Below the pieces are notes generated by a model. That model saw only the letters and a program-made list of their open reading frames with translations. It was not told the DNA's origin and did not search any database. From the NCBI GenBank assembly GCA_016867115.1, contig VGKG01000005.1, positions 1 to 61,250 of the forward strand: a stretch of DNA of 61,250 nt, written 5' to 3'. The DNA is from Candidatus Omnitrophota bacterium (GTDB lineage Bacteria > Omnitrophota > Gorgyraeia > Gygaellales > Profunditerraquicolaceae). The translations under genes and the position numbers were made by a program. Positions 24,661-60,587 of this stretch are shown here, one piece after another (positions within the stretch are counted from its first letter, which is position 1; each line of letters begins with the position of its first letter).

Positions 24661-25539
24661 CTACTTCAGTAACCCGTAGTCCTTCAGCGCTTTTTTAAGT
24701 TTCTCCAGATTCTCCGGCGACATGGAACACATCGGCAGCCTGAGGTCCGGTTCGCATAAACCCATCATGCCCATGGCCGTCTTTACCGGTATGGGATTGG
24801 TCTCTAAAAAGCAGGTCTTGATCAGCGGCAGGAGCTTAAAATGCAGCTCCTTTGCTTTTTTCAGGTTCCCTTTCTCAAACTCAAGCACCATCTCCGCGAC
24901 ATCCTTAGGCGCGATATTCGCGACTACGGAGATTATCCCTGTCCCGCCGATGCTTAATACCGGAAGGGTCAAGGAGTCGTCCCCGGAGATCAGACAGAAA
25001 GACGGCGGGCATAATTGCTTTATGCGCGACATCTGATCAAGGCTGCCGGAGGCCTCCTTCACGCCCACGATATTCTTGCAATCACCGGCAAGCCTTGCTA
25101 TCGTCTCCGGCTCGATGTTCACCCCGGTGCGCGAAGCAATGTTATAGAGGATGATCGGGATATCCACGGCTTCGGCAATGGCCTTAAAATGCTCATAAAG
25201 CCCGCGCTGTGTGGGCCGGTTATAATAGGGTGAGACCTGCAGCGACGCATCCGCCCCGCTCTCCGCAGCGTGCTTAGTCAGGGTAATCGCCTCTTCGGTG
25301 GAGTTTGAGCCGGTGCCGGCGATGACCGGAACCCTTTTTTTGACCTGATCGATGGTGATCTCGATCACTTTGTCGTGTTCCAGGAATGATAACGTAGCCG
25401 ATTCTCCGGTCGTGCCGCAGGGGACGATGCCAGAGGTGCCGTTTTCGATCTGGAAATCGATCAGGTCCCGCAGTTTCTTTTCGTCGACCATTCCGTTTTT
25501 GAATGGCGTAACTATGGCTACTATTGAACCCTTAAACAT
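24661..25539 (-). CDS. dapA: 4-hydroxy-tetrahydrodipicolinate synthase
   Basis: Has GTTGESATL and the overall DapA pattern. Confidence 0.93.
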   Translation of the reverse strand: MFKGSIVAIVTPFKNGMVDEKKLRDLIDFQIENGTSGIVPCGTTGESATLSFLEHDKVIEITIDQVKKRVPVIAGTGSNSTEEAITLTKHAAESGADASLQVSPYYNRPTQRGLYEHFKAIAEAVDIPIILYNIASRTGVNIEPETIARLAGDCKNIVGVKEASGSLDQMSRIKQLCPPSFCLISGDDSLTLPVLSIGGTGIISVVANIAPKDVAEMVLEFEKGNLKKAKELHFKLLPLIKTCFLETNPIPVKTAMGMMGLCEPDLRLPMCSMSPENLEKLKKALKDYGLLK

Positions 25540-26377
25540 TAATCACCCCCGTATAGACGAGCCTCGCTTTTCCTTCAAGCCAGACGTCGCTGAAGGAGCG
25601 GCCTTCTCTTTTAAAATATACCCTCAGGGTTTCGCCGCTAAGCGTACACACATCCACCCTTCTTCCGGCGCCGGTCTTAAGGCCAAAGATTAGCGCTGCG
25701 GCAACGCTGCCCGTGCCGCAGGCCAGGGTCTCATCCTCGACGCCCCTTTCATAGGTGCGCACACAGATCTTATCTTTATCCATGGCTTCCGCAAAATCCG
25801 CATTCGTGCCTGCCGGAGCAAACCGGCTATGATAGCGGATCGCCCGGCCGAGGTCGTTGATATACATCTCATCCAGCCCTTCGACAAAGGTCACCGCATG
25901 CGGTACTCCGGTATCGATGAAGTTCGTCTTAAGATTCCTGCCCATCACCCGGACAGGCAGATCCAACCTTATGTTTTTCGGGCTGGTCAATTTTATCCTA
26001 ACATTATCCCCTGCAACAAGTGATTCGATTATTCCGGCCTTTGTCTCTATCCTCACTTGTGACCTTCTGACCTTGTCCCCTCCGGGGAGGCTGCGCTTCG
26101 CTTCGCGCTGACCTTGTGACTTATACAACGCCGTGCACCTTGCGCCGTTACCGCACATTTGGGCCTCTGAGCCGTCGGCATTAAAGATGCGCATCCTGAC
26201 ATCCGCGGCCTTTGTTTTCTCAAGAAGCAGCAGGCCGTCAGCACCGATACCGAGTTTTCTGTCACAGATTTTTCTCGCCAGTATCCTGTGACTTTGTGAC
26301 CTGGTGACCTGGTGACTCTCTATAACCACGAAGTCATTACCGGAAGCCACCATCTTGGCAAAGATTATCTTTTTCAT
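25532..26377 (-). CDS. dapF: Diaminopimelate epimerase
   Basis: Has GNDFVV, and CGNGARC and ACGTGS supply the catalytic cysteines. Confidence 0.92.
   Translation of the reverse strand: MKKIIFAKMVASGNDFVVIESHQVTRSQSHRILARKICDRKLGIGADGLLLLEKTKAADVRMRIFNADGSEAQMCGNGARCTALYKSQGQREAKRSLPGGDKVRRSQVRIETKAGIIESLVAGDNVRIKLTSPKNIRLDLPVRVMGRNLKTNFIDTGVPHAVTFVEGLDEMYINDLGRAIRYHSRFAPAGTNADFAEAMDKDKICVRTYERGVEDETLACGTGSVAAALIFGLKTGAGRRVDVCTLSGETLRVYFKREGRSFSDVWLEGKARLVYTGVINV
26059..26123 (+). repeat. Split octamer array inside dapF: two GTGACCTT-type units, a 33-bp GC-rich insert, then two more units
   Basis: The units are gtgacctt and ctgacctt (26059-26074), then the insert gtcccctccggggaggctgcgcttcgcttcgcg (26075-26107), then ctgacctt and gtgactta (26108-26123). 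It encodes KSQGQREAKRSLPGGDKVRRSQ. Confidence 0.85.
26288..26319 (+). repeat. Four tandem GTGACNNN octamers inside dapF
   Basis: The units gtgacttt gtgacctg gtgacctg gtgactct encode ESHQVTRSQSHR. Confidence 0.9.
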
Positions 26378-27648
26378 AACCCCAGCAGGAAAGCCGGAAT
26401 GATCTCGTTACGCACCAGGTCATCCCAGGTATCCCTTTTCCTGATCACGAATGACTCACTTCCCACCACCAGCACCTCTTCGGCCCTCCTGCGGGAATTG
26501 TAATTGGAGGACATGCTGAATCCGTAGGCGCCGGCGCTCATCACCGCAAGGTATTCGCCTTCTCTGACCTTAGGCATGAGCCTTGCCTTGGCCAGAAAAT
26601 CCCCGCTCTCGCATATCGGACCTACAATATCAACCTTCTCTTGTGACCCGGTGACCCGGTGACCCGGTGACTTTAGCGGAACAATACTATGAAATGCTGC
26701 GTACAAAGACGGCCGGATAAGGTCATTCATCCCTGCATCCACGATCACGAACTTTTTCAGGGGGGTCTTTTTAATATATAAGACCTTAGTCACCAGGATC
26801 CCGGCATTACCAGAGATGAACCTGCCCGGCTCCATAATGATCTTAAGCCCGCGTTTTTTTAAGAGCGGCAGTACCTTTGCCGCAAACTTATCCGCAGTCT
26901 GGGGGGTCTCCTTATCATAGACTATTCCTAAGCCTCCGCCGATATTCAGATATTCCAGGACTATCCCTTCCTTGCGCAGCCTTCCGATAAAATCCACCAT
27001 CTTGCCGATGGCAGCCACGTAAGGGGCGCTTTCGGTGATCTGGGAGCCGATATGAATATGTAATCCCGATATCTTTACATTTGAGAGGGCCTTACGCACA
27101 AGAAAGATCTGCTGGGCGCTCTTAAAGTCTATGCCGAACTTATTGGTGAGCTTTCCGGTAGTGATGTACTTGTGGGTCTTAGGCTCCACATCCGGATTTA
27201 TGCGCAGCGCCACCTGTGCTGTGACCTTAAGCTTCCTGGCGATGCGGTTGATATTCTCAAGTTCAGGCACGCTCTCCACATTAAAGAAAAGGATCCGCTG
27301 CCTGAGCGCCTCTTCTATCTCCTTGTCGGTCTTGCCTACAGAAGCATAGACGATCCGGTTTGCGGGGCATCCCGCCTTTATAGCCCTTGAGAGCTCCCCT
27401 CCCGAAACAATATCCAGGCCCGCACCCTTATCCACGAGGCTGCGTAGGATTGCAAGGTTAGAATTCGCCTTCACCGAATAACAGATGAGCGGGTCTACGG
27501 AATGAAAGGCCTTCTTTAGTTTCAGGAAGTGGTCGACCAGCGTCTGATAACTGTAGACGTAAAGCGGGGTGCCGTACTTGCGCGCCAGGTCTTCGACTCT
27601 TACCTTTTCGCAATAAAGGTTTTTTCCCGTAAACTTAAACTCATGCAT
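26374..27648 (-). CDS. lysA: Diaminopimelate decarboxylase
   Basis: YSVKANSN carries the PLP lysine, with GGGLGI and the CESGD motif also present. Confidence 0.93.
   Translation of the reverse strand: MHEFKFTGKNLYCEKVRVEDLARKYGTPLYVYSYQTLVDHFLKLKKAFHSVDPLICYSVKANSNLAILRSLVDKGAGLDIVSGGELSRAIKAGCPANRIVYASVGKTDKEIEEALRQRILFFNVESVPELENINRIARKLKVTAQVALRINPDVEPKTHKYITTGKLTNKFGIDFKSAQQIFLVRKALSNVKISGLHIHIGSQITESAPYVAAIGKMVDFIGRLRKEGIVLEYLNIGGGLGIVYDKETPQTADKFAAKVLPLLKKRGLKIIMEPGRFISGNAGILVTKVLYIKKTPLKKFVIVDAGMNDLIRPSLYAAFHSIVPLKSPGHRVTGSQEKVDIVGPICESGDFLAKARLMPKVREGEYLAVMSAGAYGFSMSSNYNSRRRAEEVLVVGSESFVIRKRDTWDDLVRNEIIPAFLLGL
26643..26674 (+). repeat. Four tandem GTGACNNN octamers inside lysA
   Basis: The units gtgacccg (three times) then gtgacttt encode KSPGHRVTGSQ. 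Confidence 0.9.
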
Positions 27649-35593: not shown

Positions 35594-35672
35594 GATTACA
35601 CAGATTTCAAAACAGATTACACAGATTAAAGTTTCTAATCTGTGTAATCTAAGCGCTTTAATCTATGTAATC
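35594..35672. repeat. GATTACACAGATT nested palindromic element (two direct plus two inverted arms) upstream of argC
   Basis: Arms lie at 35594-35606, 35615-35627, 35637-35649 (inverted) and 35660-35672 (inverted, 1 mismatch). The inner stem is 14 bp and perfect. A near-identical element lies at 60513-60587. Confidence 0.85.
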
Positions 35673-35850
35673 ATAAATATGATCTTTATAAATGATTATC
35701 TTAAGATAAATTACCGACGAAGTCAAGTCTTTTTCTCGTCGGAGTCGAAAGCCCCCGCAGCTTCGCTTCGCGAAGCTAAACGCAGGGGTTATTTCAGCCA
35801 TAGACTTACGTCCACTGAAGAAATATAAGGTTCCGTAAGTCTAGGCTTCA

Positions 35851-41618: not shown

Positions 41619-42392
41619 CTAGTATTTTACCTTTAGCAGGCACAAACCCTTTGCCGGTGCTGTCGGCCCGGCAAGCCTGCGGTCGCGCGAATTAAGGATC
41701 CTCTCCAGAGCGCCTGCGTTTAGCTTGCCCCTGCCGATCTCAATGAGCGTGCCGACGATATTTCTGGCCATATTATACAGGAATCCGTCGGCCTCAATAT
41801 AAATATATATGAAATAACCCTGCTTCGCAACCTTTATTTGCTTAATGTGCCTCAGGGGATTCCTTGCCTTGCCACCGGAAGCCCGGAAAGAACTGAAGTC
41901 ATGCCGGCCCAGGAGCCTGCGGCTTTCTCTCTGCATCAGCCTGACGTCAAGGGGAAAAGGATAAAAGTAGGCGCTTCTTTTCAGGAAGGGGCTTGAGTGC
42001 TTGCGGTTTAAAATGGTGTAGCGGTAGAGTTTGGATCCGGCGGAAAAACGGCTATGAAAATCAAGCGGCGCTTCTTTTAAGGAATATACAGAGATGTCGT
42101 CGGGAAGGAGGCCGTTTAAGGCCCGTTCTAATTTCTCTAAGGGGATCTGTGAAGAGGTTTTAAAATTTGCAACTTGGCCTAAGGCATGCACCCCGGCATC
42201 AGTTCTTCCCGAGGCAATTAAACGGACCTTTTCCTGGAGGACCTTTTGGAGGGTCTTTTCTATTACTTCCTGGATACTTCTCTGGCGACCTGGCGACCTG
42301 GTGACCTGGTGACTTTGAATCTGCCAGCCGCAATAATCCGTTCCGTCGTACTCTATGCTGAGCCGGATATTCCTTATTATTTTACCAGGCAT
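41619..42392 (-). CDS. truA: tRNA pseudouridine(38-40) synthase
   Basis: Has YDGTDYCGWQ and GRTDAGVHA. Confidence 0.92.
   Translation of the reverse strand: MPGKIIRNIRLSIEYDGTDYCGWQIQSHQVTRSPGRQRSIQEVIEKTLQKVLQEKVRLIASGRTDAGVHALGQVANFKTSSQIPLEKLERALNGLLPDDISVYSLKEAPLDFHSRFSAGSKLYRYTILNRKHSSPFLKRSAYFYPFPLDVRLMQRESRRLLGRHDFSSFRASGGKARNPLRHIKQIKVAKQGYFIYIYIEADGFLYNMARNIVGTLIEIGRGKLNAGALERILNSRDRRLAGPTAPAKGLCLLKVKY
42285..42316 (+). repeat. Four tandem G(C/T)GACNNN octamers inside truA
   Basis: The units gcgacctg gcgacctg gtgacctg gtgacttt encode SHQVTRSPGRQ. Confidence 0.9.
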
Positions 42393-45546: not shown

Positions 45547-46842
45547 TTAGGATAGTTCTCCGGGATGCGTGACCCTGCCCGTAACTGCCGAGGCTGCGGC
45601 CACTGCGGGCCCGGACAGATAGACAAACGACTCAGGGCTGCCCATCCTTCCGATAAAATTACGGTTCGTGGTCGCAAGGCAGACTTCTCCGGCGGTAAGT
45701 ATCCCCATATGGCCGCCCAGACACGGGCCGCAGGAAGGCGTCTCAAACACCCCTCCTGCCCTGACAAAGACCTCCGCCAGCCCTTCCCTGACCGCCTCTA
45801 AATATATCTTCTGCGTCGCCGGGATGACTACCAGCCTCAACCCCGGCCTGATCTTCCTGCCGCGCAGGATCTTGGCCGCTACCTTTAAGTCCGTGATCCT
45901 TCCGTTAGTGCAGGAACCGATAACTACCTGGTCCAGCTTCACATTACCTAAGCTCGAAGCTGGCTTGACATTGCTGGGTAGATGGGGACAAGCCACCATG
46001 GGCTCAAGGCCCGAAACATTCCACTCGTAAATCTTCTCATAAACGGCATCTTTATCAGACTTAAGCCCTTCCCATGTTTTTAGCTTTTTACTTGTGACGT
46101 GGTGACCTTGTGACTTGGTGACCTCTTTTATATATCTCAGCGTTACCTCATCCGGCTCGATTATGCCTGCCCTGGCTCCGGCCTCTATCGCCATATTCGA
46201 TATGGTGAGCCTCTCTTCCGCGCCCAGCGCCCTGATCACCGGTCCGCTGAACTCCATTACCTTATATAAGGCGCCGTCTACGCCGATCTCGCCTATCGTA
46301 AACAGGATCAGGTCTTTTCCGCTGACCCATTTCTTGAGTTTTCCATGATAGACGAACTTTACCGTTTGCGGAACCTTCAACCAGCATTTGCCGTCAATAA
46401 AGGCGCGCGCAAGGTCAGTCGAACCCACCCCGGTGGCATAGCTGCCCAGCGCACCGTAAGTGCAGGTGTGCGAATCCGCGCCGATCACCAGGCTTCCCGG
46501 CAGCACCAGGCCCAGCTCCGGAAGGAGGACATGTTCAATACCCATACAGCCGACTTCAAAATAATTCCTGATCTTCTGCTCTCCGGCAAAATCCGCCAGG
46601 ACCTTGCACTGGTTTGCGCTTCTTGAATCCTTTGCCGGAGCAAAATGGTCCGGGACAAGGACTATTTTCCCGGGGTCAAAGACCTTCTTGAAGCCGGCCT
46701 TCCTGAACTCTGCGATAGCAAGGGGTGCGGTAATATCATTACCGAGGGCAAGATCGACATCTGCCTCGATAAACTCATGCGGCTTTATTGACTTCCTGCC
46801 GCAATGAGCCATGAGTATCTTTTCAGCGATTGTATAACCCAT
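45547..46842 (-). CDS. leuC: 3-isopropylmalate dehydratase large subunit
   Basis: It is aconitase-family, with GADSHT and the GSCTNGR and CGPCLG cluster ligands. Confidence 0.92.
   Translation of the reverse strand: MGYTIAEKILMAHCGRKSIKPHEFIEADVDLALGNDITAPLAIAEFRKAGFKKVFDPGKIVLVPDHFAPAKDSRSANQCKVLADFAGEQKIRNYFEVGCMGIEHVLLPELGLVLPGSLVIGADSHTCTYGALGSYATGVGSTDLARAFIDGKCWLKVPQTVKFVYHGKLKKWVSGKDLILFTIGEIGVDGALYKVMEFSGPVIRALGAEERLTISNMAIEAGARAGIIEPDEVTLRYIKEVTKSQGHHVTSKKLKTWEGLKSDKDAVYEKIYEWNVSGLEPMVACPHLPSNVKPASSLGNVKLDQVVIGSCTNGRITDLKVAAKILRGRKIRPGLRLVVIPATQKIYLEAVREGLAEVFVRAGGVFETPSCGPCLGGHMGILTAGEVCLATTNRNFIGRMGSPESFVYLSGPAVAAASAVTGRVTHPGELS
46094..46125 (+). repeat. Four tandem GTGACNNN octamers inside leuC
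   Basis: The units gtgacgtg gtgacctt gtgacttg gtgacctc encode EVTKSQGHHVTSK. Confidence 0.9.
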
Positions 46843-46845
46843 AGT

Positions 46846-46988
46846 TTAAATTCTAAATTCGAAATCCTAATTTCTAAACAAATCCCAAATCCTAAACTCC
46901 AACGTCCCAACAATACTTAGTTTGGAATTTGGGAAATTGAAATTTAGAAATTGTTTAGGATTTAGTGCTTGGGATTTAGAACTTAATT
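46846..46988. repeat. AT-rich imperfect inverted repeat of about 140 bp filling the fabF-leuC gap
   Basis: Both arms are built from aaatcctaa / tttctaaa / tcccaaat words that recur as their reverse complements (tttaggattt, tttagaaa, atttggga) on the other side of a centre near 46900-46915. Confidence 0.7.
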
Positions 46989-49451: not shown

Positions 49452-49474
49452 CTTGCCTCCCTAACTACTATCTG

Positions 49475-50395
49475 CTAACTGCTATCTACTGTATTTAGGA
49501 TGTCCTCTTTCTTCTCTATGCCGGTAACCGGTATACTGCTGTCAATACGGCGCATCAGGCCCTTTAGCACCTTTCCCGGGCCGAATTCATAAAAATCGGT
49601 CACGCCCTGGGAGATGATATATCTCATTGATTCTTCCCATTTTACCGGAGAATACATCTGCTGGATGAGGTTCTCGCGGATCTGGCCTGCGCGGTATTGC
49701 GGCATGGCGGTAACATTACTTACTACCGGCACTGCCGGTGCGGATACCGGGGTATTCTCAAGAAAGAGCTTTAGCTCAGCTGACGCTTCAAACATGAGGG
49801 ATGAGTGGAAGCCGCCGCTCACCTCAAGGAAAATGACTCTTTTTGCCCCCTGCCCCTGGCACGATTTAGCCGCCGCATCCACTGCTTCAGACTTACCGGA
49901 GATGACGATCTGGCCGGGGGCATTGAGGTTGGCGATCTCTGCGCCGGTCTTAAGACAGATATCCTTGACCGCATCAAAACCCAGTTCAAGCACCGCTGCC
50001 ATCTTTCCGGGGTAGCGGCAGGTGGCATCTTCCATGATCTCGGCCCTTCTCCTTACCAGCCTAAGGCCGTCCTCAAAGGTAAGGCTGCCTGCGGCGATCA
50101 GCGCGCTATACTCCCCGAGGCTAAGGCCGGCCATAAAAAGGGGGTGCGGCTTGGTTATGCTCTTGAATGCTTCAAGGGCCGCGATGCTTACGGTGAGGAT
50201 CGCCGGCTGCGACATGATCGTCTGCTTAAGCATGGCCGGATCGCCGCTGAACATGAGGCGGGACAGGGAAAAATGGAGCGCCTCATCGGCAGAATCAAAG
50301 ACCGCCTTGCTTTCGGGAAAGGCCTCGCATAAGTCCTTTCCCATCCCGATATACTGGCTGCCCTGGCCTGCGAACAGAAAAGCTGTCTGTGCCAT
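49475..50395 (-). CDS. fabD: Malonyl CoA-ACP transacylase
   Basis: Has FAGQGSQYIGMG and GLSLGEYSAL. Confidence 0.93.
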   Translation of the reverse strand: MAQTAFLFAGQGSQYIGMGKDLCEAFPESKAVFDSADEALHFSLSRLMFSGDPAMLKQTIMSQPAILTVSIAALEAFKSITKPHPLFMAGLSLGEYSALIAAGSLTFEDGLRLVRRRAEIMEDATCRYPGKMAAVLELGFDAVKDICLKTGAEIANLNAPGQIVISGKSEAVDAAAKSCQGQGAKRVIFLEVSGGFHSSLMFEASAELKLFLENTPVSAPAVPVVSNVTAMPQYRAGQIRENLIQQMYSPVKWEESMRYIISQGVTDFYEFGPGKVLKGLMRRIDSSIPVTGIEKKEDILNTVDSS

Positions 50396-53508: not shown

Positions 53509-54231
53509 TTACGCTTCTTTCCTATAAATGGAGATTACAGTATCGCCGTACCTGGCTTGCTTGACGAGGCTAAGCTTTCCGGCTTGCCGGGGGAGCTCAT
53601 CGCGCTTAAAATGCTGCACTACCACCAGACCAATGGGCGCTAATATATCATAAGCCCCCAGCATTTGCAAGGCTTTTTTTGACGCAGAAGGCGGCACACC
53701 AACCCATCCTTTAGGGTTGGGTGTTGACGCAGAAGGCGGCACACCAACCCATCCTTTAGGGTTGGGTGTTGACGCAGAAGGCGGCACACCAACCTTTCTG
53801 TCCATAGAGGACGCACTTGGCAATCCTTTATGCCAAGGTGCCTTAAGGTTGGGCGTTGCCGTACCCTTCTTATAGTAAGGAGGGTCTAAGAAGATGATTT
53901 CAAAGCTTTTCTTCTCTTTATGCAGGAGCCGGATCGCGCTTTCAGAATCCAGGGGAATAAGGCTGCAGTCGGTTATTCCCAGGGACTCTATATTCCTGCG
54001 GATCGCCTGCAGGGATTCCCGTTCAGGCTCAACCAGGGTAAGGCTCGCAGCTCCCCTGGAGAGCGCCTCAAAGCCCACTGCCCCCGAACCGGCAAAAAGC
54101 TCCAGGAAAGAGAGCCCCTCGATGTCTCCCAGGATGTCAAAGACCGCCTTCCTTACCTTATTCTGGGTCGGCCGGATGCCTTTGGGCATCTTAAGGAGCC
54201 TGCCTTTGAATATACCGGTAGTTATTCTCAT
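53509..54231 (-). CDS. rsmD: 16S rRNA (guanine966-N2)-methyltransferase RsmD with an internal repeat insertion of about 60 aa
   Basis: Has RPTQNKVRKAVFDIL, LELFAGSGAVGFEALSRGA and IFLDPPY. At 240 aa it is longer than the usual 180-190 aa. Confidence 0.88.
   Translation of the reverse strand: MRITTGIFKGRLLKMPKGIRPTQNKVRKAVFDILGDIEGLSFLELFAGSGAVGFEALSRGAASLTLVEPERESLQAIRRNIESLGITDCSLIPLDSESAIRLLHKEKKSFEIIFLDPPYYKKGTATPNLKAPWHKGLPSASSMDRKVGVPPSASTPNPKGWVGVPPSASTPNPKGWVGVPPSASKKALQMLGAYDILAPIGLVVVQHFKRDELPRQAGKLSLVKQARYGDTVISIYRKEA
53681..53866. repeat. In-frame array of hairpin units inside rsmD: two perfect 45-bp units, a partial third and diverged copies
   Basis: Units run 53681-53725 and 53726-53770, with a partial unit 53771-53794. 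A diverged hairpin lies at 53813-53841 and a half copy at 53841-53866. All hairpins share the loop ATCCTTTA and a bulged G. Confidence 0.9.
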
Positions 54232-60512: not shown

Positions 60513-60587
60513 GATTACACAGATTTATTTAGATTACACAGATTGAAGCTTTAATCTGTGTAATCTACCCTTATAATCTGCGTAATC
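60513..60587. repeat. Second GATTACACAGATT nested palindromic element, upstream of the KS-partner gene
   Basis: Arms lie at 60513-60525, 60532-60544, 60553-60565 (inverted) and 60575-60587 (inverted, 1 mismatch). The architecture matches 35594-35672. Confidence 0.85.

Follow-up and report, generated by a model that had tools for sequence, protein, structure and literature searches.

The dapF gene and the octamer arrays of the window

The window, i.e., the whole stretch of 61,250 nt of Candidatus Omnitrophota DNA that was analyzed, contains a gene for diaminopimelate epimerase, dapF (25,532-26,377, minus strand, an ORF of 846 nt). Its product is a DAP_epimerase according to Pfam (PF01678, E=1.5e-43) and matches DapF chains in the PDB (E=1e-34). 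Both catalytic cysteines, C75 and C220, are kept and occupy invariant columns of an alignment of orthologues (alignment A1). The AlphaFold model has a mean pLDDT of 87.9, and the identical protein is present on five contigs.

Five octamer arrays were found in the window, all of them intragenic: dapF has two, and lysA, truA, and a leuC-like gene of the aconitase family have one each. The dapF array at site 1 (26,288-26,319, minus strand; TRF period 8, 3.6 copies) is uninterrupted and encodes the peptide SHQVTRSQSH. This site is an indel hot-spot across 30 orthologues, and the respective residues 21-30 have a mean pLDDT of 71. The arrays in the other genes are likewise annotated on the minus strand, i.e., in lysA, which encodes an Orn/DAP decarboxylase according to Pfam (26,643-26,674; TRF period 8, 3.6 copies, 100% matches; peptide SPGHRVTGSQ), in truA, the tRNA pseudouridine synthase gene (42,282-42,314; TRF period 8, 4.0 copies; Pfam PseudoU_synth_1), and in the leuC-like gene (46,094-46,124; TRF period 8; Pfam Aconitase). 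The window has 10 matches to the octamer pattern GTGACYNNSTGACY, all of them on the plus strand, compared to 0.00 in 100 shuffles, and a unit type C..GTCA is common to the arrays of five unrelated genes. A G-quadruplex function of the arrays was rejected, because GGG tracts are confined to the lysA array, which has just three. Phase variation in the sense of contingency loci is unlikely, as the arrays consist of only three to five units of 7-8 nt and the genes are essential. A genome scan with (GGTCACNN)2GGTCAC was too unspecific for the mapping of octamer arrays, and the matches listed were mostly from Streptomyces and other high-GC organisms. In these high-GC genomes the matches are 24 nt apart and probably represent 24-nt protein repeats.

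The second dapF array is interrupted. The initial annotation had described it as a four-unit octamer array that is split by exactly 33 nt, and this was confirmed from the sequence: on the plus strand, gtgaccttctgacctt (26,059-26,074) and ctgaccttgtgactta (26,108-26,123) enclose gtcccctccggggaggctgcgcttcgcttcgcg (26,075-26,107; 33 nt, 11 codons). The length of the insert was correctly given, whereas its position has to be shifted one base to the right, because the periodicity of the array is best restored by removal of 26,076-26,108. The 33-nt element thus delimited (minus strand; coding strand GCGCGAAGCGAAGCGCAGCCTCCCCGGAGGGGA) matches the consensus of the family described below. It is preceded on the coding strand by two octamer units, ATAAGTCA and CAAGGTCA (26,109-26,124, minus strand), and followed by three, CAAGGTCA, GAAGGTCA, and the degenerate CAAGTGAG (26,052-26,075, minus strand). 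The adjoining units form an exact direct repeat (8/8), the flanks joined without the 33 nt have a lag-8 self-match of 0.60, and the element sits exactly at a unit boundary (A|C).

At the protein level, the array adds residues in-frame to a surface loop of DapF, directly behind the helix beginning at the catalytic Cys. The element encodes R91-G100 plus parts of Q90 and D101, and residues 94-102 have pLDDT values below 50. The loop is 19 residues longer than in the shortest Omnitrophota orthologue (alignment A1). Compared to E. coli DapF it is presumably longer by about 11 residues, and not by the 15 residues claimed before.

Distribution and genomic context of the 33-nt element

The window contains just one copy of the element. 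A scan with the 26-nt pattern GCGAAGCNNAGCCTCCCCNNAGGGGA retrieved 49 DNA stretches, nearly all from Omnitrophota and originating from many projects, while about 0.07 would be expected by chance according to our own estimate. Several genomes have more than one copy of the pattern, with up to six per genome, the density of the element in the sampled genomes is about one per 60-150 kb, and viral contigs gave 0 matches. Element positions 8-33, except for the Ns, are set by the search pattern, and their invariance across the 49 loci is thus by construction; the seven 5' positions outside the pattern are likewise conserved. The variable sites of the family are position 2 and the triloop middles 6 (A18/C5/G19/T12), 16 (A24/C1/G20/T9), and 27. 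The dapF copy has a single difference to the consensus GTGCGnAGCGAAGCGnAGCCTCCCCGnAGGGGA, at position 2. Copies from the same genome have 2.45 of the four variable-site states in common, versus 1.53 between genomes, a difference reached by none of 2000 permutations, and the copies form genome-specific subfamilies. No correlation of the three variable loop bases with the flanking unit sequences, as expected for a "guide", was visible among the copies. The elements occur singly or in direct tandem (L090, L094, L098), and the two identical copies of L090, one unit apart, look like a product of 41-nt slippage. The one inverted pair (L101) is 1.2 kb apart and lies inside a larger duplication. A 24-nt variant is present in the other dapF array of one further genome. 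Literature searches yielded no paper linking Omnitrophota with such repeats, and searches with sequence strings gave primer lists only.

Most copies of the family are embedded in tandem arrays with a unit length of 7-10 nt and keep the phase of the units. Excision of exactly 33 nt restores a periodicity of 7 or 8 nt in 28 of 54 copies, compared to 0.1% of random positions, and all other definitions of the boundaries restore it less well. A direct repeat of one unit with at least six matching positions flanks the element in 28/54 copies, and conservation of the flanking bases is limited to A at -1 (48/54) and C at +1 (47/54). Some of the host arrays have periods of 9 and 10. In 1.28 Mb of Omnitrophota DNA, 63 arrays of period 7 and 16 of period 8 were found (shuffles: 2 and 0), of which 46 and 13, respectively, are situated in spans that stay open for 150 codons or more. 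Arrays with a period of 6 or 9 are rare, with five and one, respectively. The unit sequences vary by site and genome, and most arrays are devoid of the element. The proposal of one repeat family residing within another, with the frame kept intact, is therefore well supported by a dispersed 33-mer family with copies in phase inside arrays, as far as the nesting is concerned; the preserved frame is real, yet incidental to the peptide, because the family is read in all three frames.

Of 56 copies, 32 are sense-oriented and lie in spans without a stop over 150 codons or more, distributed over the three frames in a ratio of 14/9/9. All 10 tested host spans encode housekeeping enzymes (CarA, PGM twice, PrmC, an HisH-like amidotransferase, LeuRS, a Mur ligase, and others). 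In 49-50 of the 56 copies, the forward strand of the element coincides with the strand rich in G and in genes, and this is also true for about 10 of the 13 intergenic copies in our reading of the tables. The sense strand of arrays and element has no stop codons, and the insert is tolerated because of this property and because compensating changes in unit number keep the inserted length a multiple of three. What is conserved is the nucleotide sequence, without conservation of the peptide.

In the closest DapF relative (L083), the element is present at the same dapF site, one frame over, and the frame of the gene is restored by a gain of 26 nt and a loss of 8 nt. The element thus encodes AQRSEASPKG in L083 and REAKRSLPGG here. 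All 29 constrained positions of the two copies are identical, compared to 62% of the quasi-neutral third positions (P about 1e-6), and the four differences all fall on variable sites of the family. The dapF copy probably predates the split between this genome and the closest relative sampled. An uninterrupted array, which the initial annotation had suggested to look for, was found at the same dapF site in L081/P0002, which also speaks for the nesting. One unit of L081, CAAGGGGA, may be the scar of a deletion via AAGG microhomology or a chance two-base variant. Close relatives have both arrays and element, and not extra residues devoid of an octamer signature. Overall, some DapF orthologues have no insert at all, and others have inserts that are quite different (alignment A1).

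The initial annotation had taken a 13-mer common to the insert and to positions 35,759-35,771 as a sign of the nesting. The 13-mer, GCTTCGCTTCGCG, occurs exactly twice in the window, at 26,095 and 35,760. The second copy is part of an intergenic hairpin between rpsI and argC (35,752-35,788, minus strand) with 15 base pairs, the apex GCGAAGC, and a predicted DNA folding energy of -15.9 kcal/mol (z=-3.8). The similarity to the element stops after 13 nt and comprises only the GCGAAGC cap and one more GAAGC, and the hairpin is no member of the 33-nt family. The 13-mer is not abundant (the 12/13-mer has three hits in the 1.28 Mb of Omnitrophota DNA, which had not been selected for the element), and on its own it is weak evidence, as 5 of 100 shuffles give at least two hits with at most one mismatch. 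A search of the rpsI-argC spacer against Rfam gave sub-threshold chance hits only, none at the gathering score.

Predicted hairpins and comparison with known repeats

The element is predicted to be composed of four hairpin modules with GNA triloops, i.e., three overlapping GCGnAGC motifs and TCCCC-GnA-GGGGA with a stem of 5 bp. The GCGNAGC motif fits positions 3-9, 8-14, and 13-19, with the variable base as N. DNA with this motif is known to fold into mini-hairpins of extraordinary stability, in which two G-C pairs and a sheared G-A pair are formed and N may be any base, and variants with CC..GG stems are similarly stable (PMC13037366). Conventional thermodynamic models miss this stability (PMC13037366). 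Nearest-neighbour DNA folding gave z values of about 0 against shuffles for the 33-mer (range -1.5 to +0.8 for the 33-mer and the 65-nt region), and the hairpin prediction is therefore based on the motif and on the placement of the variation. The sole compensatory example is L088 with TACCC/GGGTA, and a metagenome scan for stem variants with a non-C at position 22 gave one ambiguous match, TGCCC-GAA-TGGGA. Natural mini-hairpins have been described at origins and priming sites of ssDNA phages (PMC13037366). The element resembles d(GCGNAGC) DNA in having the motif three times and, in addition, a GnA loop closed by CC..GG; however, d(GCGNAGC) is a structural motif and not a genetic element, and the review describes no dispersed repeat of it (PMC13037366).

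Among genetic elements, REPs and REPINs are similar in several respects. REPs are also short (20-60 nt), dispersed, imperfect palindromes, the palindrome of the element being TCCCC-GnA-GGGGA, and for both a non-autonomous nature and an action as folded single strands are assumed. However, the great majority of REPs lie outside genes, with hundreds of copies per genome, whereas the element is mostly intragenic and far lower in copy number, and REPINs replicate as inverted doublets, in contrast to single or directly repeated elements nested in arrays of 7-10-nt units. A tblastn search with two Y1/HUH transposase probes gave no match, and hence no RAYT, in 1.67 Mb (more than 100 genomes, of which less than 1% was covered). 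Insertion of IS200/IS605-type elements is strand-specific, into the lagging-strand template, and the strand bias of the element agrees with that. IS200/IS605 elements insert 3' of a fixed tetra- or pentanucleotide without target duplication. The flanks of the element keep only A at -1 and C at +1, and within arrays a target duplication would look like a further unit. MITEs, which are derived from DDE transposons, have terminal inverted repeats and target-site duplications, whereas the ends of the element (GTGCG... and ...GGGGA) are not inverted repeats. Rickettsia palindromic elements (RPEs) are likewise small palindromic repeats residing in-frame in protein-coding genes, which they do not destroy; they are about 100-150 bp long and not known outside Rickettsia or in association with tandem arrays, in contrast to the 33-nt Omnitrophota element, which also has a larger intragenic share. 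Of 728 RPEs, 85 are located within ORFs (PMC1166351). Cyanobacterial SDRs differ from the element in sequence and phylum. They are reportedly very small hairpin repeats of 21-27 nt that insert into other repeats, a finding attributed to Elhai et al. in 2008. SDR5 is said to use HIP1 as its insertion site (PMC5861425).

Tandem heptanucleotide arrays are known from Calothrix/Nostoc and Xanthomonas (PMC4692102). The Omnitrophota arrays resemble such STRR-type SSRs in having head-to-tail 7-nt units and several families per genome, those of the window being octamers. However, the heptamer arrays of Nostoc and Xanthomonas are over-represented in non-coding regions (PMC4692102), whereas the Omnitrophota arrays lie mostly in long ORFs. 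It was stated in 2015 that no detailed literature has focused on heptameric repeats (PMC4692102).

Possible modes of spread

With a probability of about 70%, the 33 nt in dapF are a copy of a miniature dispersed repeat of the Omnitrophota that is copied into tandem arrays and conserved as DNA. We infer the spread from the distribution of the element alone, and a within-species pair of filled and empty alleles was not seen. The element would be recognized as a folded single strand and copied strand-specifically into tandem arrays by an enzyme of the host or transposase type that is provided in trans, as for REP/IS200-type ssDNA elements, and the arrays would offer preferred landing pads and, in genes, sites at which the element is tolerated.

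The spread might also proceed without a dedicated enzyme, if template switching or gene conversion took the nested 33-mer from one array to another with like units. The copies are indeed in phase with the units, those of one genome often reside in the same unit type (in MAG005 three times in CGCAATA and three times in TGACCTA) and have variable-site states in common, and the L090 pair has the appearance of slippage. Nevertheless, this explanation is unlikely, because the same element is found in arrays of unrelated units, within and between genomes, and is near-invariant across a phylum in which DapF proteins are just 50-60% identical. This near-invariance points to sequence-specific recognition.

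A function at the RNA level is a further alternative, i.e., the element might be a structured module of mRNAs involved in stability, processing, or protein binding, with its sense orientation kept by selection. It would explain that the sense-strand bias extends to intergenic copies and that the nucleotides are conserved independent of the reading frame, and the TCCCC-GnA-GGGGA hairpin would form in RNA as well. However, most copies reside in translated ORFs, where ribosomes would unfold them, no Rfam family matched the dapF region at E values up to 1, and insertion into the lagging-strand template equally predicts a sense bias, because genes follow the G-rich strand. GCGNAGC has, moreover, been described as a mini-hairpin motif of DNA (PMC13037366). 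Taken together, an RNA-level role seems improbable.

The same low probability is assigned to the arrays being footprints of the element, which would arise if insertion duplicated a 7-8-bp target, excision left the duplication behind, and repeated visits built up an array. The direct repeats of one unit that flank the element, both in the window and in about half of the copies, the differences of unit sequences between sites and genomes, and the dominance of periods 7 and 8 over 6 and 9 would all fit. But the C..GTCA unit type recurs in unrelated genes of the window, which argues for units being more than local sequence, some host arrays have a period of 9 or 10, the element is absent from most arrays, and insertion into a pre-existing array would look the same.

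It is very improbable that DapF was selected for the additional residues, e.g., as a functional loop, with the repeats as a by-product of coding for it: the insert keeps the frame and dapF looks functional, but in L083 this DNA is read in a different frame, copies in unrelated enzymes are translated in all three frames, the DapF segment is modelled with low confidence, and orthologues have no or very different inserts. Chance GC-rich filler or an assembly artefact, for which only the weakness of the isolated 13-mer could be quoted, has a negligible probability in view of 49 independent DNA stretches with the pattern, the exact protein on five contigs, and the arrays occurring 10 times against an expectation of 0.

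If the copied-repeat explanation is true, essential biosynthetic and translation genes throughout the phylum tolerate two layers of non-coding-type repeats, and the DNA of the element stays near-invariant although it is translated in whichever frame it has landed. Peptides like SAxRSxASPKGT, VRSEAxPPRRG, and xAKRSLPxGD in Omnitrophota proteins should then be annotated as repeat-derived and not as domain features. It would become testable how tiny elements without terminal repeats or genes of their own move, whether ultra-stable mini-hairpins of DNA play a part in genomes apart from phage origins, and how the short heptamer and octamer arrays of bacteria originate.

As a more tentative extension, which is possible though doubtful, the element might represent an undescribed class of intragenic mobile DNA, a 33-nt module of GNA mini-hairpins that would be copied as folded ssDNA, strand-specifically, into arrays of 7-10-nt units in surface loops of essential enzymes, and its 20-nt core (GCGNA)3 could mark an ancient cross-phylum signal, e.g., for priming or for an HUH-type enzyme, rather than convergence. 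The core, GTGCGnAGCGAAGCGnAGCC, recurs at 120 or more loci of Alphaproteobacteria, Geobacter, Riflebacteria, and Cloacimonadota, with several loci per genome, and it may be common to these groups and the Omnitrophota by descent or by convergence on a (GCGNA)3 cap. Outside the Omnitrophota it forms the apex of long hairpins, e.g., CCTCATCCTGAG-core-TCGAAGGAYGAGG, and is enclosed by a lineage-specific outer stem, whereas the Omnitrophota core has no outer stem and is followed by TCCCCGnAGGGGA, and the whole lies within tandem arrays.

The dapF gene and its tandem arrays

The gene under study, dapF (25532..26377, minus strand), encodes a diaminopimelate epimerase (Pfam PF01678, E=1.5e-43; solved DapF chains, E ~1e-34) and adjoins dapB, dapA, lysA and argH. 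As described in the initial annotation, its octamer array is split 2+2, i.e., gtgacctt ctgacctt (26059-26074) and ctgacctt gtgactta (26108-26123, + strand) are separated by 33 nt (26075-26107). The octamer motif is far above chance, with 10 matches to GTGACYNNSTGACY in the window versus none in 100 shuffles. Five arrays of C(A/C)NNGTCA units (coding strand) are present, two in dapF and one each in lysA, truA and a leuC-like gene, all in the same orientation. The 8-nt unit runs through all three frames within three units, and the orientation within genes is explained by the fact that the opposite one (GTGAC) always puts a TGA in frame.

Short tandem arrays are a phylum-wide feature of Omnitrophota, as judged from 1.28 Mb comprising the collected DapF loci and the window, and thus from loci picked around dapF, a hot spot in its own right. 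This sample contained 63 arrays of period 7 (46 in open spans of 150 codons or more; 2 in a composition-shuffled control), 16 of period 8 (13; 0), 5 of period 6 (5; 2), and one of period 9 (0; 0). The unit sequences vary from genome to genome and from site to site. Further heptamer arrays of the window, at 1049-1094, 46847-46902 and 49461-49487 (CAAAACA, TAAATTC/AAATCC and CTAACTG), apparently lie outside genes or at gene ends.

The DapF matches of the window protein come from Omnitrophota and comprise 256-295 residues. Aligning 30 of these orthologues (A1) revealed that the catalytic cysteines C75 and C220 are both invariant, and that length variation is concentrated in three loops, namely, site 1 after VVIE, site 2 after the CGNGARC helix, which carries the insert, and a loop near ALKTG. 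The spacing from the Cys of the helix to RIETKAG is 27 residues in the window protein versus 8 in the shortest orthologue. An AlphaFold model built from this alignment has a mean pLDDT of 87.9, with values below 50 at residues 94-102, within the insert, and 71 at site 1. Therefore, the insert adds a disordered segment to a surface loop, and the enzyme is intact in other respects. Other small hairpin inserts occur in the same loops of other genomes (proteins P0116, P0086, P0026, P0047 and P0014 of A1; loci L100 and L102). They include a PACPAGRQ type (CCTGCCTGCCGGCAGGCAGG), of which P0116 has three copies, and the types SLRAPKGRSN...EIASSGFALLAMT and FDKLRTSLRAG; several small-insert families thus use the arrays of these loops.

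A dispersed 33-nt element nested in phase in tandem arrays

The insert belongs to a family of dispersed, strand-biased, sequence-constrained 33-mers that occur irrespective of reading frame and lie in phase within tandem arrays, which bears out the proposal of the initial annotation that one repeat family resides within another. The closest DapF relative (protein P0004, locus L083; 86% identity outside the arrays) has a 33-nt stretch at the same dapF site that is identical at 29/33 positions. A scan of 185,579 species genomes for GCGAAGCNNAGCCTCCCCNNAGGGGA, with about 0.07 chance matches estimated at equal base frequencies, yielded 49 stretches of DNA, with up to six loci in some genomes. Almost all derive from Omnitrophota or from Planctomycetia-labelled MAGs that were also found among the DapF relatives, and Auribacterota are represented as well. 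The seven bases 5' of the search pattern were unselected, yet they are conserved (G52 t39 G51 C50 G52 n A52 of 54). The consensus is GTGCGnAGCGAAGCGnAGCCTCCCCGnAGGGGA, and the window copy occupies 26076-26108 on the minus strand.

Excision of exactly 33 nt restores a 7- or 8-nt periodicity across the joined flanks in 28/54 copies, compared to 0.1% of random positions, and a shift of either boundary by one base reduces this to 5-8 copies. In 28/54 copies, by our own count from the table, the 7- or 8-mers immediately adjacent to the element on its two sides form a direct repeat with 6 or more matching positions; those of the window copy match at 8/8 (CAAGGTCA on either side). Some copies reside in arrays of period 9 or 10 (L086, L126, L129, L130). 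The preceding base is A in 48/54 copies, the following base C in 47/54. A 24-nt variant, GAGCGCAAGCCTCCCCGAAGGGGA, occurs at site 1 within the dapF array of another genome (L373), and a HisH-like gene carries the element at the same loop in two genomes, within different arrays (L094, L109). Three loci (L090, L094, L098) contain two copies in direct tandem with one or two array units between them; in L098 the separator is a different hairpin insert. At L095, near 2185 (minus), an element copy within a CGCAATA heptamer array precedes an apparent tRNA gene (gccctcgtagctcagtatggatagagcac...) by about 16 nt. Four 8-kb loci with the element (L085, L107, L108, L114) consist of one open frame over their whole length (2666 codons or more), and the hosts are therefore giant genes.

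An uninterrupted array, the existence of which the initial annotation had left as a question, is found at the same dapF site in a relative (P0002, locus L081; 70% identity outside the arrays) and reads TTAAGTCA CAAGGTCA CAAGGGGA CAAGGTCA. The third unit is identical to the expected product of a 33-nt deletion from a unit's AAGG to the AAGG of ...CCCCGAAGGGGA. It may be the scar of a secondary loss of the element; two substitutions would likewise explain it. Another relative (P0003, locus L084; 79%) has five AAGTCAA heptamers at this site and no element.

Conservation as DNA and a putative folded form

The 33-nt insert preserves the dapF frame, as had been noted, yet across its hosts the element is read in all three frames: 32/56 copies run in the sense direction through open spans of 150 codons or more, with frames distributed 14/9/9 and the peptides SA[KEQ]RS[EGV]ASP[KE]GT, VRSEA[KE]PPRRG and x[EVG]AKRSLP[GE]GD. 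All ten tested host ORFs encode ordinary enzymes (CarA, two phosphoglucomutases that carry the insert at different places, PrmC, a HisH-like amidotransferase, a GDP-mannose-dehydratase-type epimerase, a Kdo transferase, LeuRS, a Mur ligase, and a radical-SAM protein). As judged by eye, T at a loop base never yields an in-frame TAG in genic copies.

Even in dapF the same DNA is read as REAKRSLPGG in the window and as AQRSEASPKG in L083, which has gained 26 nt upstream and lacks one 8-nt unit downstream, so that the length differs by 18 nt and the frame is restored. The gain is an extra insert at 75-100 of L083, CACTGCCTGCGCAAAGCGCTGGCGCA, which contains GCGCAAAGCGC and is separated from the downstream 33-mer by one unit. 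Across identical A/G/P/T/V/L/R/S codons, the two genes agree at 62% of third positions, versus 29/29 of the constrained positions of the element (P ~1e-6), and the four differences, at positions 2, 6, 16 and 27, fall on the variable sites of the family. The element is conserved as DNA and not as peptide, and its sequence is either under purifying selection as nucleic acid or renewed from other copies. Protein-level selection for the insert and a chance origin are both excluded.

The element has the layout GT-GCGnAGC / GCGAAGC / GCGnAGC-C-TCCCC-GnA-GGGGA. GCGNAGC is a "mini-hairpin DNA" motif with two G-C pairs, a sheared G-A pair and any N; GCGAAGC melts at 76.5 C, CC..GG stems are likewise accepted, and the stability is unexplained by conventional thermodynamic models (PMC13037366). 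The three freely varying bases coincide exactly with the N of the GnA loops, which is suggestive, albeit not proof, of mini-hairpin folding. Nearest-neighbour folding of the element was no better than that of shuffles. A compensatory stem change was present in one diverged copy only (L088, TACCC/GGGTA), and a metagenome scan for stem variants retrieved a single ambiguous case.

The 13-mer that the initial annotation had used to connect the insert with an intergenic hairpin indeed occurs exactly twice in the window, but a common origin as element did not hold. The hairpin (35752-35788, between rpsI and argC; 15 bp, apex GCGAAGC, z = -3.8) resembles the element for 13 nt only, and the two have a hairpin cap in common, not the element. 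The 13-mer is no common low-complexity sequence, a possibility that had been considered, as occurrences in Omnitrophota DNA are few: GCGAAGCGAAGC is found three times in 1.28 Mb unselected for the element, in the two dapF elements and at 35760. The 20-nt 5' half of the element (GTGCGnAGCGAAGCGnAGCC) alone has at least 120 matches. Most of those listed are in Alphaproteobacteria, where abundant hairpin repeats have this core at their apex (CCTCATCCTGAG-core-TCGAAGGAYGAGG), with several per genome in Methylorubrum, Methylobacterium, Devosia, Caulobacter and Brucella; the matches listed also include Geobacter, Riflebacteria and Cloacimonadota, where the outer stem is specific to each group (L134-L251). 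Across phyla, the shared core may derive from a common ancestor or have arisen by convergence towards a (GCGNA)3 cap.

Strand bias, spread and related repeats

The forward strand of the element is the G-rich strand in 49/56 copies and the strand with most long ORFs in 50/56. Selection against stop codons alone cannot explain this bias, because it is also seen in about 10/13 intergenic copies (our own reading of the tables) and because no frame of the reverse orientation contains a stop. Copies share 2.45/4 variable-site states within genomes compared to 1.53/4 between genomes, a difference reached in 0/2000 permutations, which indicates that the element has been spread or homogenised within genomes.

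One way of spreading, to which we assign a probability of roughly 35%, would be REP/IS200-like: a trans-acting enzyme would recognise the folded single strand of the element and copy the element into arrays, and the arrays would be preferred targets and tolerated places at once. No Y1/HUH gene was found in a small sample (about 1.7 Mb, tblastn), and no copy of the element was found in viral contigs. Alternatively, the within-genome spread might have occurred by template switching between like arrays, or the arrays, with their direct repeats at the element's flanks, might be accumulated target duplications of the element. The constraint on the nucleic acid might also reflect a role at the RNA level.

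In its working, the element is similar to REP/REPIN sequences, but it lacks the defining features of REPs, which are extragenic, form inverted doublets and have a high copy number. Residence inside genes is shared with the Rickettsia palindromic elements; however, these have about 100-150 bp and are confined to Rickettsia, in contrast to the 33-nt element of Omnitrophota. The nearest analogue of element and arrays is presumably the combination of small dispersed repeats and STRR heptamers in cyanobacteria. For one of these dispersed repeats, SDR5, HIP1 is reported to serve as insertion site (PMC5861425). Our literature search retrieved no account of either the arrays or the element for Omnitrophota.

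The window contains additional repeats. A 45-nt unit is present 2.6 times with 100% identity at 53679-53794, within an RsmD-like methyltransferase gene (53509..54231, minus) whose Pfam match is limited to residues 1-124, and the unit includes the hairpin CACCCAACCC...GGGTTGGGTG. At 2388-2868, an 87-nt repeat (x2.3) and a 68-nt repeat (x2.7) lie on either side of a tRNA gene (2594-2665, minus) and may mark an integration site or stem from duplication of the tRNA end. Lastly, two intergenic regions (35594-35672 and 60513-60544) contain GATTACACA(GAT) motifs as direct and inverted repeats, and these motifs look like operator sites of one regulator.
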